From positions 308,450,001 to 308,514,000 of the forward strand of contig OZ024743.1 of assembly GCA_964016885.1 (NCBI GenBank): a stretch of DNA of 64,000 bases, given 5' to 3'. How positions within the stretch are numbered: position 1 is the first letter of the stretch; the number at the start of each line of letters is the position of its first letter. This document shows positions 50,031 to 58,345 of this stretch, piece by piece. The notes beneath the pieces were generated by a model. It was not told the origin of the DNA. It saw only the letters and a program-made list of their open reading frames with translations, and did no database searches. Position numbers and translations under genes: made by a program. Origin of the DNA: Eledone cirrhosa. Lineage: Eukaryota.

Positions 50031-50175
50031 ATGAATTCTAAAACCGATATTGACCTCAACAATGTTTCTGGTGATATTGAACCTTTCTTCACTAAAGCTG
50101 AAATGGATAATATGTCTGATAAGAAAAAATATCTTCAAAATTCATGTAGAAATTACCAAGCAATGTTATTGCTTG
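50031..50175 (+). CDS. Exon encoding an ancestral KRAB-A-like box
   Basis: TTTCAG|ATG...; translation MNSKTDIDLNNVSGDIEPFFTKAEMDNMSDKKKYLQNSCRNYQAMLLLG; phase-1 donor G|GTAAAT inside the terminal Gly, as in KRAB-A and PRDM9 exons. Confidence 0.8.
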
Positions 50176-50584
50176 GTAAATATATTTTTGTGTATGATTC
50201 AGGTTTATGAGTACTGCAACAATGTTGAGCAAAACACATGACTTGTAATGTGTGTGTGTAATGATCATCAACTTTTTCCGCCAGCTGCTTTGTGGGTGTC
50301 CAGGGAGTCCAACCATCCATAGGCCCTTAATTCTTGAGAGAATCATAGGGGTATCACCTTGAACATTTAAACTTACGGGAATCCATATTTCTCCCGACTG
50401 GAATACAGCTGATTTCTTCCAGAGAGAGAGGTGTGTGAAATAGATGTTAAAGAAGAATCAATCCCAGTATTGAACTCGTTTTTTTATTTATTGATCAAAA
50501 AAATATGAGAGGTAAAGCTGATCTTGACAGGATTTGAACTCAGACTACAGTGAGCAAGATCAAATATTGTAAAGCATTATATTA

Positions 50585-50720
50585 GTAAGGATGAAAGGCA
50601 AAGTTAACCTCAAATCCCGCCGAGGTTAACTTTGCCTTTCATCCTTACAGGGTCGATAAAATAAAGTACCAGTAATACACTGGGATAATTGCTGGCCTTG
50701 TGCCAAAAGTAGAAACAATT
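50585..50720 (+). mobile_element. Nin/Deu-like SINE 3' part with a 5' inverted duplication
   Basis: 27-bp perfect inverted repeat at 50585-50611/50622-50648; TSD ATTATATTAGT at 50576 and 50718. Confidence 0.85.
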
Positions 50721-51228
50721 ATATTAGTTGTTCTAATGAATTTGTCACTTTGCAGTCGTGTCCAGGCTGTGGACACATAAAATAGCACTGATTCTACAGT
50801 GTCTTAGAAGAAACTTCTCTTAAGGCCATCTGATGGTAATGATATCTGAAGAACACTGAGGCCATTGAGAATAACCTACAATTTTGGGAGATATTTTACA
50901 TCTGTTTCTATGAATATGATGTTGTTTTTTAAGTATATAAATGAATCCACAGATTTTAGGTTTTACATCATTGAGTTTTTTTAGCCTTTACATGGCTGTA
51001 TTAATTCATGACCAGGACCCTAGCTTTCATATATCTTGGTACCCATTTGGCACATCAATCTTTCACTCTACTACAGCAAATATATATATATTGACAAGCC
51101 CCTAGGCTATTCTGATGTACTGATAGTCATTTTGACTATCAATGTAGCTATTTCACCTTTTAAATATTTAAAATTCTGTATTTTTATTGTTTTTATTTAA
51201 AAATGGATTATCTATATTTCTCTGTTAG

Positions 51229-51358
51229 GTTTATGTCCCATGAAACCATATTTTATGGAGTCCAAGAAATATCAACCGAAAAAAAGGTTTGAAGAAACTA
51301 AAACAGGTTATGAGGATATTGAATGGCTTTCTAGTTACAAAAAGAAAAGATGACAGAG
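51229..51358 (+). CDS. Second exon, PRDM9-like post-KRAB segment
   Basis: TCTGTTAG|GT; translation (G)LCPMKPYFMESKKYQPKKRFEETKTGYEDIEWLSSYKKKR*; donor GTATTA at 51359; TGA at 51351 follows an A-run. Confidence 0.72.
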
Positions 51359-51594
51359 GTATTAAGTTAAAATCTTTTAAACTTTTCATTACCAGCCTGG
51401 CTAAAACTAGTTCTGGTTCTATGAAACAAAACCACCCATTTTAAATTGTTCCAATGAAAATTAAAATCTTCCAACATACTTTTGTAAAACAACCATATGT
51501 TATGTCGCTATCTTATTGATGAAATAATGAATAATTTTAGTCAATCTTTCAAAATAATTAATTAACTAAGCAACACAAGCTTCAACACATCTTC

Positions 51595-56007: not shown

Positions 56008-56131
56008 TCTCAGAAAATAATAAAGAAATAACAGCGATTTGGATACTAGGCAATACAGATAATAGAGGAGATAAGAAAGCAGACGAATTAGCAAAAGAAG
56101 GAGCACAAAAAAGAAATAATGGATATAGACT

Positions 56132-57214
56132 TATAACAAAATACTGGTGTGTATGAATATAACAGGAGACTCAGTTGTGTATATAAAGTTTAATTAACAA
56201 GTTGAAGTTATGTAGTATAGAATTGTTGACATGTCAAGAGTAGATGAAATATGAAGTAAAGTTATTTGTTACCGTTTTGAAGTTAGCTCGCAAGAGACCA
56301 TGTTAGGGTTGCCAGAGAGTAGAGACTCGGCGAACGCGCCTGGCCGAAAGGGCAAATGAGAGAGAGATCGCTCTGAGTATCCCTTTTATAGGGTCTCAAG
56401 ACGGAAGTGACAAAAAGGGTTCTGCCACCCCAACGGGAAGAAAATGGCGCAAAAATTTTGATTTTGAAAAATTTGTGTGGGAATGTGATAATATGATGAA
56501 AAAGAAAGAAAGGCTTCACTTGGTATAACAAATATGGCGAGTTCCATTTTTTTGTGAACGATGAAAAAAAACTTGGTGGAAAGAATAAGCAATAGTTGAG
56601 ATTCAGCAAAAATAAATGTTCATGTTGAAAAAGAGTCTGAACGAGAATTTCACGTGTCCGTGTGTTCGTTTCTGTGTCTGCGAATTTTTCCTAGTTCGTT
56701 AATAAAGTTTGCTGCGTATTCGAAATGTTGGTCGACACATTCCCACGAAAATGGGGTACTGCTAATTAATTTTCTTTTTTCCATACTCACACAACACCAG
56801 TTTCTGTCATTTTTTTCTCGTGGTCACCACTTATAACAAAACACTGGTGTGTATGAATATAACAAAGATGCTTGGTTGTGTATATAACGTTTAATTAACA
56901 ATTTGCAGTTATGTAGAATAGTATAGTTGACAAGTCAATGAAAGTAGATGAAAGAATGAAGTAAAGTTATTTGTTACCGTTTTGAAGTTAGCTCGCAAGA
57001 GACCATGATAGGGTTGCCAGGCGAATGCGCCTGGCCGAAAAGGCAAAAGAAAGAGAGATCGCTCTGAGTATCCCTTTTATAGGGTCTCAAGACGGAAGTG
57101 ACAAAAAAGGGTTCTGCCACCCCAACGGGAAGTAACTCCAGCTACTTCCTGTCTAGAGAGCGTTAATCTATTGGTGATGTGATCGTTACAACAAGGTAGG
57201 CAACTCTTGCTACA
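56132..57214 (-). mobile_element. Non-autonomous LTR element related to 39029-41238, internally deleted
   Basis: 4-bp TSD GACT; 5' LTR 56832-57214 (TGTAGCAA...TTGTTATA); PBS TGGTGACCACGA; 3' LTR 56132-56440 lacks its 5' ~85 bp; LTR and leader are homologous to the first element (CAAAACGGTAAC..GTCAACTATACTAT..). Confidence 0.9.
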
Positions 57215-57547
57215 GACTACATCCCAAATCTTTCACAGGTAATATCATTTAGCAAACAATTAGTCATGGGTGGGAAACATTTTGGGAAGAATCCAGAGAT
57301 AAGCTCAAGAATTTCAGTCACCCACTTTCTCAACCAGATTTGACAACATTCAAAACGTATCGATCATTACCTTTCAACTACATTCTATCAAGAACAGATC
57401 ATAGAGATTCACCTCTATGTTCTTGTGGTGACTCTCCAGAAACTCTTTGGCACTATTTGTTCCAATGTAGAAACTATCAGTCTGAGAGAGAGGCTATGTT
57501 GAAACCAATCTTTAAAAAACTAAGATTGGAAGTTCAATATTTGATTA

Positions 57548-57642
57548 CAGGCGGAGGATTGGCAGTACAGCGTCAGACAGAGTTATGGCCCTTTATGTTC
57601 TCAGTTCAAATCCCGCCGAGGTTAACTTTGCCTTTTATCCTT
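57548..57642 (+). mobile_element. Nin/Deu-like SINE 5' fragment
   Basis: GGCGGAGGATTGGCAGTACAGCG...GTTCAAATCCCGCCGAGGTTAACTTTGCC. Confidence 0.75.
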
Positions 57643-57885
57643 ATATAAACAAAATCTTTGAGTACATGGAAGCTGCAAAAGATTCAACAAGAGAAACTTC
57701 TAGCTGTTTTACAGCTTCCCTTGTTTCCTATTTTCCTTTTCATAGGTATAATCTTCCTCCCATTGGCCTTCAATATTTGAAATGTTATTTTTATTATTTA
57801 CCCCCCCCCCCCTTTCTCTTTGTAAGGGGTACTCGATACTACCTCAAGTGCTTACTAGGTCTATATGGACGTTAAATAAATAGAT

Positions 57886-58345
57886 AAATGTAAGGAATGT
57901 GAAAAGTCATTCTCTCAGTCTCGGGATTTAACTATACATGAGAGAGTGCATACTAGAGAGAAACCATACAAATGTAAGGAATATTGAAAGTTATTCTCTG
58001 ACTCTAGTCATTTAACTATACATGAGAACACATACTGGAGAGAAACCATACAAATGTAAGGAATATTGAGAGTTATTCTCTGACTCTAGTCATTTAACTA
58101 TACACGAGAAGACATACTGGAGAGAAACCATACAAATGTAAGGAATATTGAGAGTTATTCTCTGACTCTAGTCATTTAACTATACACGAGAAGACATACT
58201 GGAGAGAAACCATACAAATGTAAGGAATATTGAGAGTTATTCTCTGACTCTAGTCATTTAACTATACACGAGAAGACATACTGGAGAGAAACCATACAAA
58301 TGTAAGGAATATTGAAAGTCATTCTCTCAATCTGGTAACCTAACT
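57886..58345 (+). pseudogene. C2H2 zinc-finger exon, 3' part
   Basis: Intact finger [27 protein letters not shown], then four dead 82-bp finger repeats with TAT-TGA replacing Cys-Gly. Confidence 0.92.

Follow-up and report, generated by a model that had tools for sequence, protein, structure and literature searches.

A stretch of Eledone cirrhosa DNA with two exons of an ancestral (PRDM9-type) KRAB domain, or aKRAB, and then a zinc-finger exon is very probably a broken, DNA-level duplicate of the full-length PRDM9 gene on contig C22 of the same genome, lacking five middle exons, and likely a pseudogene that was never lastingly functional. The whole stretch analyzed (the window, 64,000 nucleotides) lies on C4, a different chromosome from that of the C22 gene (the parent); features are collected in Table 1. 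Translation of the window places exon 1 (145 nt, phase 1) and exon 2 (130 nt) each between an AG and a GT, with the acceptor of the finger exon at 54320/54321. Splice sites of all three remaining exons are intact, and exon 1 is open. The two exons, previously missed, and the downstream finger exon had been proposed in an earlier note on this DNA; they are real, and the translations agree with those re-derived here. The note was also correct that no SET exon separates the KRAB exons from the fingers. Parent exons 3-7 were undetectable in 51359-54320, where local scores were 22-32, with shuffles reaching up to 33-39 and expected scores of 82-413, and none of the 15 PR/SET matches in the genome falls on C4. 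Without PR/SET and without SSXRD, the window copy does not qualify as a full-length PRDM9.

Table 1. Features of the duplicated segment, in positions of the window.
Feature	Positions	Strand	Remarks
5' edge of duplicated segment (intron just 5' of first coding exon)	49880..50030	+	Beyond the edge, no colinear unique match to parent upstream DNA seen
Exon 1, ancestral KRAB-A	50031..50175	+	Open, splice sites intact; one codon deleted, conserved core residues altered
Intron 1, homologous to parent intron 1	50176..51228	+	~78-83% by blastn; holds an inserted short repeat, 50610-50724
Exon 2, ancestral KRAB-B region (P-x-FM ... EW)	51229..51358	+	TGA, 2-nt deletion; ends in phase 2 vs phase 1 in parent
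5' remnant of parent intron 2	51359..51578	+	Left deletion end, parent C22 ~11541712
Decayed non-LTR retrotransposon fragment (presumably RTE), reverse transcriptase pieces	51579..53277	-	Occupies site of missing parent exons 3-7
3' part of parent intron 7	53278..54320	+	Resumes at parent ~11550212; second retrotransposon fragment ~53572-54148
5' part of zinc-finger exon	54321..54879	+	PRDM9 linker lacking 18 nt; a single intact C2H2 finger followed by frameshifted ones with periods of 82 and 68 bp
LINE insertion in finger array, RT and RNase H-like pieces	54880..57885	+	Nested short repeats; direct-repeat pair 56129-57135
3' part of finger array	57886..58348	+	5.6 tandem copies of 82-bp frameshifted finger unit, near-identical to one another

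The PRDM9-type identity of the KRAB, as the earlier note had it, was upheld by profile scores far above those of shuffles. Of 55 proteins fetched for their SET similarity, 12 PRDM9-like ones of non-octopus origin supplied the N-termini for a profile, on which spliced exons 1 and 2 of the window scored 39.2 bits and the parent 74.6 bits, the best of 1000 shuffles reaching 8.8; a vertebrate-only profile gave the window exons 29.8 bits versus 9.5 in shuffles. As judged from sequence, the KRAB likeness of these exons is beyond chance. Translation and alignments of the window further showed DI at A7-8, no MLE motif and, in the B part, P-x-x-FM followed later by a Trp, features given for aKRAB in section 2.1 of PMC8835667; the parent retains a basic pair ahead of NY that is damaged in the window. 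Among the proteins compared, those of Lottia (P0077) and Mizuhopecten (P0007) are aKRAB-A PRDM9 orthologs in Table S1 of the same paper. The Pfam scan suggested by the earlier note gave no KRAB or SSXRD match, the match being to the PRDM9-type profile instead. Pfam KRAB (PF01352) matched exon 1 of neither the window nor the parent, and across the genome its 14 candidates included a single weak match (on C3, 18.6 bits), which stayed under the cut-off. These negative scans are uninformative, since the KRAB and SSXRD models both also miss known molluscan (scallop) and salmonid PRDM9. A search of solved structures with exon 1 returned nothing meaningful, and a word-based protein search with parent exon 1 yielded 0 of 13 candidates.

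The parent is a complete PRDM9 gene of eight exons, all bounded by AG/GT, with 1496 codons free of stops, encoding in order aKRAB, an SSXRD-like exon, a zinc knuckle, PR/SET and 39 finger units. Exons 3-7, those missing from the window, comprise the SSXRD-like, zinc-knuckle and both PR/SET exons. For one SET exon the best solved structure is PRDM9 (1.6e-24, versus 9.5e-17 for PRDM14), as it is for the other (1e-8 versus 8.7e-5). In alignment with human PRDM9, the tyrosines of GYSW, IYYR and WYG are kept; these we take to be Y276, Y341 and Y357, the three catalytic tyrosines. Exon 4 has no match to Pfam SSXRD, a model that likewise misses scallop and salmonid PRDM9; it occupies the SSXRD position and aligns with segments of scallop and salmonid PRDM9, zinc knuckle included. 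In the finger array, 36 of the 39 units are canonical, with a mean DNA identity of 0.916, and the fraction of finger diversity that falls at positions -1, 2, 3 and 6 is 0.47 (0.14 if even), or 0.38 at -1, 3 and 6; complete PRDM9 orthologs range from 0.331 to 1.000 (Table 1 of PMC5519329). These values are those of a homogenized array with diversity at the predicted DNA-contact positions, as in PRDM9. Besides the two of the parent there are 13 PR/SET matches, of which the two that were typed are both PRDM14-like and the remaining 11, where aligned, are 31-53% identical to the parent SET exons. Among named proteins, the nearest are those of Octopus bimaculoides and Argonauta hians, confirming that the genome is that of an invertebrate.

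Descent of the window copy from PRDM9 follows from its colinearity with the C22 gene in both exons and introns, the shared introns being approximately 80% identical (1464 aligned columns, p 0.186). At the window, no colinear unique homology to DNA upstream of the parent was found in 21.9 kb. A segment beginning about 150 bp 5' of the first coding exon was probably copied from C22 to C4, most likely without promoter or 5' exon, and would then have drifted at a near-neutral rate. Up to 8.5 kb may have been lost where the retrotransposon fragment now sits, either by deletion at insertion or by recombination between repeats; a LINE would have entered the finger exon, whose minisatellite probably went on expanding with an out-of-frame 82-bp unit. 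That this unit was amplified after the break is suggested by the near-identity of its copies to each other (the parent unit is 84 bp). The KRAB-plus-fingers appearance would be a by-product of these events, because in PRDM9 the end of exon 2 and the start of the finger exon (exon 8) share phase 1, such that loss of the middle exons leaves this layout. The idea that the window copy represents an ancestral SET-less state was rejected, given that the domain order of the parent is also that of PRDM9 in scallop, limpet and vertebrates.

The lesions of the window copy bear out its description as decayed: a stop, a frameshift and a broken finger exon. Alignment with the parent shows two distinct lesions in exon 2: a Gln codon of the parent is replaced by an in-frame TGA at 51351-51353, and 2 nt are deleted directly after it. 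The earlier note had proposed that removing one A restores the frame; the arithmetic works, but this is not the true lesion, the parent having an identical A-run, and a one-base repair as the explanation of the broken frame is ruled out by that comparison. The open frame of the finger exon stops at 54574, after a single intact finger, and an approximately 3-kb LINE divides the array. With the TGA and frameshift of exon 2, the stop after one finger and the LINE, no open frame joins KRAB to the finger array. The earlier note had understated the damage to the finger exon.

Whether the deletion came first, giving a SET-less aKRAB-zinc-finger gene that was in frame and worked, as a DNA-binding adaptor lacking methyltransferase, before it later died, was weighed against these data and appears unlikely. 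The deletion keeps the frame between parent exons 2 and 8; the retained splice sites and the indels in exons 1-2 and linker, mostly multiples of three (3, 3 and 18 nt), would likewise be expected after a time under selection. A pairwise dN/dS of 0.53 between window and parent fits such a gene as well (pN 0.115, pS 0.203, Fisher p 0.047; small counts), and suggests some constraint, which on these small counts is assigned to the branch of the parent. However, most amino-acid changes lie on the window branch, some of them at positions that are invariant in the KRAB. With scallop and O. bimaculoides as outgroups, polarized changes divide 13:2 between window and parent (p 0.007, 29 unpolarized), and with closer outgroups 9:3 in exon 1 and 5:1 in exon 2; four window changes are at residues where 13 of 13 outgroups match the parent. 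About four-fifths of the polarized amino-acid changes would thus belong to the window copy, at a roughly neutral rate. A neutral window branch by itself predicts a pN of 0.100, compared with the 0.115 observed (p 0.33), and arithmetic from these counts puts dN/dS on the window branch near 0.9-1.0, with approximately 0.7 also possible, against a once-working gene. In exon 1 DNA, a three-way comparison with a third copy gave 11 window-only and 8 parent-only changes, a weak asymmetry. The age of the insertions (JC to the 5 nearest copies) has the retrotransposon at the join looking slightly older, at 0.11-0.14, than the finger-exon LINE, at 0.10-0.115, as a gene that worked between the two events would predict, but the ages are similar and leave little time between. 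The lack of parent-type upstream DNA at the window and of any daughter copies found in the genome also argue against it. An octopod-ancestor deletion that gave an independent cephalopod origin of the KZFP layout, dead here and perhaps intact in relatives, is viewed as similarly doubtful.

The earlier note had placed the locus in a SET-less aKRAB-ZNF family, and this did not hold. Protein, family and DNA searches of the genome found at least three aKRAB loci, these being the parent, the window copy and one 150-nt fragment, and a scallop query (42-53% identity) retrieved the same three. By exon, the copies number three for exon 1, two for exon 2 and two for the finger-exon linker, all genome copy counts being lower bounds from searches that score just the top candidates, one exon at a time. 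One further aKRAB match, located at C22:17173438 and weak (E 7.9), was rejected, having no phase-1 junction at Gly and no Pfam match; no finger or SET motif was found in the 50 kb around it. The layout of KRAB and fingers without SET was found, in this lower-bound search, in one copy, that of the window. The sole unbroken paralog found is the full PRDM9, the other loci being the broken window copy and the fragment. Within the reach of the searches, then, intact paralogs all carry SSXRD-like and SET exons, which the earlier note had itself named in advance as the mark of a deleted PRDM9 pseudogene. That the window copy is a decayed member of a living SET-less aKRAB-zinc-finger family of the lineage, missed by the searches, is very improbable: three queries with exon 1, and those with exon 2, the linker, Pfam KRAB and DNA, converge on the same two or three loci, and among 23 relatives of parent exon 1 in 1.8 billion proteins the two with fingers both have SET, most others being uninformative short fragments.

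It is scarcely credible that the locus still makes a short aKRAB-only peptide of 89 aa, terminated by the TGA of exon 2, with a decoy or SSX-like role. In its favor, exon 1 and the greater part of exon 2 remain open and their splice sites are intact, but core KRAB residues are damaged, as the fall in profile score from parent to window also indicates, and there is neither an SSXRD-like exon nor upstream homology. An assembly artefact or mis-assembled haplotype of the C22 gene is just as implausible; the lesions are those of the assembled sequence, but intron divergence of approximately 19%, private insertions of old repeats and a location on another chromosome far exceed allelic or error levels.

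As a PRDM9 pseudogene the window copy is ordinary, duplicated and truncated PRDM9 having been described in vertebrates and cnidarians. It shares with PRDM9 (Meisetz), including the Lottia XP_009045324 and Mizuhopecten proteins (Table S1, PMC8835667), the two-exon aKRAB-A/-B and a finger array in one last exon, and descends directly from the full-length PRDM9 of its genome, but differs in lacking the SSXRD-like, zinc-knuckle and PR/SET exons and an open frame. Like the truncated duplicates of cnidarians (10.64898/2026.09.07.749791) and vertebrates (PMC5519329), it is recent, lineage-specific and has lost whole exons; the cnidarian variants, however, are defined as SET-retaining and have all lost 5' or 3' ends, whereas the window copy lost its middle, kept both ends and is a pseudogene. 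In domain order (KRAB, linker, C2H2 array, no SET) it resembles coelacanth aKRAB-ZNF and tetrapod KRAB zinc-finger proteins (PMC8835667). Those form open, multi-member families, in contrast to the window copy, which is single and dead; its PRDM9-type KRAB is damaged and lacks the MLE motif, by which modern KRAB binds TRIM28 (PMC8835667). The locus may be read as a natural record that PRDM9 exon phases permit a one-step, in-frame jump to KRAB-plus-fingers in a mollusc, one that here failed.

A by-product of the analysis is a full-length cephalopod PRDM9 with predicted catalytic tyrosines and a homogenized 39-unit array. Molluscan PRDM9 as such was already known (Lottia, PMC2779102). Octopus, Sepia and other cephalopods are absent from Table S1 of PMC8835667, and in the literature searched, as judged by titles and the opening parts of abstracts, no report of an octopus or cephalopod PRDM9 was found. 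The C22 gene makes the PRDM9-directed placing of recombination hotspots testable in cephalopods.

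The three pieces of the locus, two KRAB exons and a zinc-finger exon, were found at the positions and with the AG/GT ends assigned in the earlier note, and a C2H2 finger was recognized in the third by Pfam. Pfam KRAB, one of the checks proposed there, matched neither exon 1 nor exon 2, whereas a profile derived from PRDM9-like proteins matched strongly. The Pfam blank is uninformative, because most tested PRDM9-like proteins with a KRAB region also fall short of the cut-off; one of four (lizard) lay above it and one was weak, with Pfam KRAB absent for a scallop protein (among 25 of 26 families listed) and for a salmonid one. 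Using a profile of N-terminal segments from 12 of 55 non-octopus proteins, which were obtained by SET-domain similarity and picked by a short motif, the spliced exons 1 and 2 scored 39.2 bits (shuffle maximum 8.8, n=1000), and with a vertebrate-only profile of 10 sequences, 29.8 bits (shuffle maximum 9.5). When the window and the loci examined were scanned as 8938 six-frame segments, the aKRAB profile ranked only the window exons and their paralogs. As judged from these profiles, the KRAB in the window is real and of the ancestral PRDM9 type (aKRAB), in agreement with the original assignment.

Features of the window and related loci (G000, the genome under study; C4, the contig holding the window)
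Feature	Coordinates	Strand	Remarks
Satellite array, 62-bp unit x307	window 1-19048		96% matches
Satellite array, 38-bp unit x136	window 22729-27897		95% matches
Overlapping disrupted ORFs (longest 331 aa)	window 31131-33597	-	retroelement polymerase-like
Exon 1, aKRAB-A	window 50031-50175	+	AG/GT ends
Exon 2, aKRAB-B	window 51229-51358	+	AG/GT ends
Finger exon	window, start 54321	+	AG acceptor; Pfam C2H2 match
Direct repeats, two of ~310 bp, 700 bp apart	window 56129-57135		nested in LINE; 89-98% in blocks
Frameshifted finger repeats	window 57886-58348		5.6 near-identical copies, 82-bp out-of-frame unit
Third aKRAB-A exon copy (L003)	G000:C4:207925174-207925324	+	~150 nt, frameshifted
Full-length PRDM9-like gene (parent)	G000:C22:11539653-11554104	+	loci L007-L009; exon model from sequence alone

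A 77% paralog of window exon 1, with an exon 2 paralog downstream, lies on contig C22 in a full-length PRDM9-like gene (the parent). All splice sites of its eight modeled exons are canonical, and the reading frame stays open over 1496 codons. The first two exons encode aKRAB-A and aKRAB-B; after a short third exon come an SSXRD-like exon (exon 4), the PR zinc knuckle (exon 5), PR/SET (exons 6 and 7) and the fingers (exon 8). Pfam SSXRD found no match in exon 4, whose SSXRD-like character rests on position and alignment. PRDM9 was the best solved-structure match for each of the two SET exons, and the three catalytic tyrosines, as aligned with human PRDM9 motifs, are retained. The finger array comprises 39 units of 84 bp (36 of 39 canonical; mean identity 91.6%), with 0.47 of amino-acid diversity held by positions -1, 2, 3 and 6; this lies inside the 0.331-1.000 spanned by complete PRDM9 orthologs in Table 1 of PMC5519329, although the positions counted there may differ. 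The nearest named proteins came from Octopus bimaculoides (SET exon, 64%) and Argonauta hians (KRAB exon, 65%), not from a vertebrate, and the supposition of an invertebrate host thus held; the genome is that of a coleoid cephalopod, likely an octopod.

Window and parent are colinear, introns included (1464 intron columns; p 0.186, JC 0.214), which indicates duplication of DNA and rules out a retrocopy. Homology begins ~150 bp upstream of exon 1, and beyond that edge the 21.9 kb upstream of the window copy and the 19.7 kb upstream of the parent gave repeat or short opposite-strand matches only. Because the ATG adjoins the splice acceptor directly, the gene would require a further exon and a promoter upstream, and none of the parent type was seen there for the window copy. 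Homology breaks at ~51578 and restarts at ~53278, with a reverse-strand retrotransposon fragment between; the parent's intervening 8.5 kb, some of which may have been inserted in the parent alone, includes exons 3-7 and is missing from the window. In window exon 2, a TGA at 51351-51353 (a Gln codon in the parent) is followed by a 2-nt deletion; these are the lesions, rather than the one extra A suggested earlier, the A-run being the same in both copies. The finger exon is interrupted by a 3-kb LINE, and its open frame covers one finger only, followed by frameshifted units. Since the out-of-frame units are near-identical, minisatellite turnover of the PRDM9 type went on after loss of the frame, without coding function. 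The locus is thus very probably an internally deleted PRDM9 pseudogene, the best explanation for a real aKRAB-plus-fingers remnant. It shares the look of KRAB zinc-finger genes, but fails membership because it has no open frame and no family.

It is improbable that the window copy was once a working SET-less aKRAB-finger gene. Deletion of exons 3-7 alone would preserve the frame, because the end of parent exon 2 and the start of exon 8 share phase 1; moreover, the window copy keeps intact splice sites and has three indels with lengths divisible by three, its pairwise dN/dS with the parent is 0.53 (144 codons, Fisher p 0.047), and when exon 1 DNA was compared among window, parent and third copy, the asymmetry was weak (11 window and 8 parent changes). 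However, the pN of 0.115 fits a neutral window branch and a nearly frozen parent (0.100 expected, p 0.33). Amino-acid changes polarised with distant outgroups numbered 13 for the window and 2 for the parent (29 unpolarised), and with more outgroups 9 and 3 in exon 1 and 5 and 1 in exon 2 (deletions counted); four window changes fall where 13 of 13 outgroups share the parent's residue. Arithmetic assuming equal neutral rates places window-branch dN/dS near 0.9-1.0, with ~0.7 also compatible at these small counts. The join repeat and the finger-exon LINE are at distances of 0.11-0.14 and 0.10-0.115, respectively, from the five nearest copies measured (40 scored for each), compared with 0.214 for the duplication. 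Both are old and of similar age; if the join repeat dates the deletion, an intact SET-less stage would have had to be brief.

Nothing points to the SET-less aKRAB-finger family that the earlier note had envisaged, with locus counts from the searched genome (3.0 Gb, 1796 contigs) being lower bounds. Exon 1 queries from window, parent and scallop all converged on three loci, namely the parent, the window exon and the third copy, and the C22 paralog, the one without a stop, carries SSXRD-like and SET exons. The third copy is 83% identical to the parent and 80% to the window, and the surrounding 30 kb holds no exon 2, SET, finger or other exon of PRDM9. Queries with exon 2 and with the finger-exon linker each found two loci, and a 710-base DNA query, for which 40 of 800 candidates were scored, found the aKRAB loci plus 37 matches that cover only a repeat in the 3' end of the query. 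A PR/SET search gave 15 matches from 21 candidates; C4 has none of them, and two fall within the C22 gene. Parent exon 1 matched 23 of 1.8 billion representative proteins, mostly short fragments; both finger-bearing relatives also have SET, and two repetitive matches were dismissed as spurious. A fourth weak aKRAB match (L065; G000:C22:17173438-17173527, + strand) was rejected, having no Pfam match and no fingers nearby; it contains a weakly aKRAB-like helix (YE-x-x-R-x-x-N-x-x-x-N-like) and is likely an unrelated gene.

The locus records a frame-preserving route to the KRAB-plus-fingers layout, and led to a full-length cephalopod PRDM9. The aKRAB groups given in PMC8835667 are PRDM9, SSX and coelacanth KZNF types; PRDM9 from Lottia and from Mizuhopecten is among the rows of its Table S1, where no cephalopod was found. 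A Lottia Prdm9 finger array is described in PMC2779102. In cnidarians, PRDM9 duplication and truncation are frequent, but the truncated set is there defined as SET-keeping, so that SET-less copies are uncatalogued (10.64898/2026.09.07.749791, in the portion consulted). The accessible text of PMC4760075 does not mention cephalopods, and that of PMC12513265 has three mentions of KRAB, none on cephalopod genes, and none of PRDM. No paper on cephalopod or octopus PRDM9 was found by title and opening of the abstract, in a search whose coverage excludes most subscription journals. Two cephalopod proteins that resemble PRDM9 pieces carry other names: P0002 from Octopus bimaculoides (SET, linker and fingers) is called 'zinc finger protein 391, partial', and P0080 from Argonauta (aKRAB and SET) is called 'PR domain zinc finger protein 12-like'. 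Such names may be why cephalopod PRDM9 is overlooked.

Elsewhere in the genome, PRDM14 was the best solved-structure match for two other PR/SET loci tested; PRDM14-like exons lie at G000:C1:305726836 and C1132:436392 and 446880, the latter two 10 kb apart in opposite orientation on a small contig. In the window, the polymerase-like ORFs are presumably Penelope-like, with no relevant Pfam match for the two scanned, and the direct repeats may represent either a tandem duplication or a small element of LTR type. Five equal-scoring copies of one LINE piece are spaced by ~18 kb at G000:C334:12949-86854, which suggests that contig C334 carries a large tandem array.
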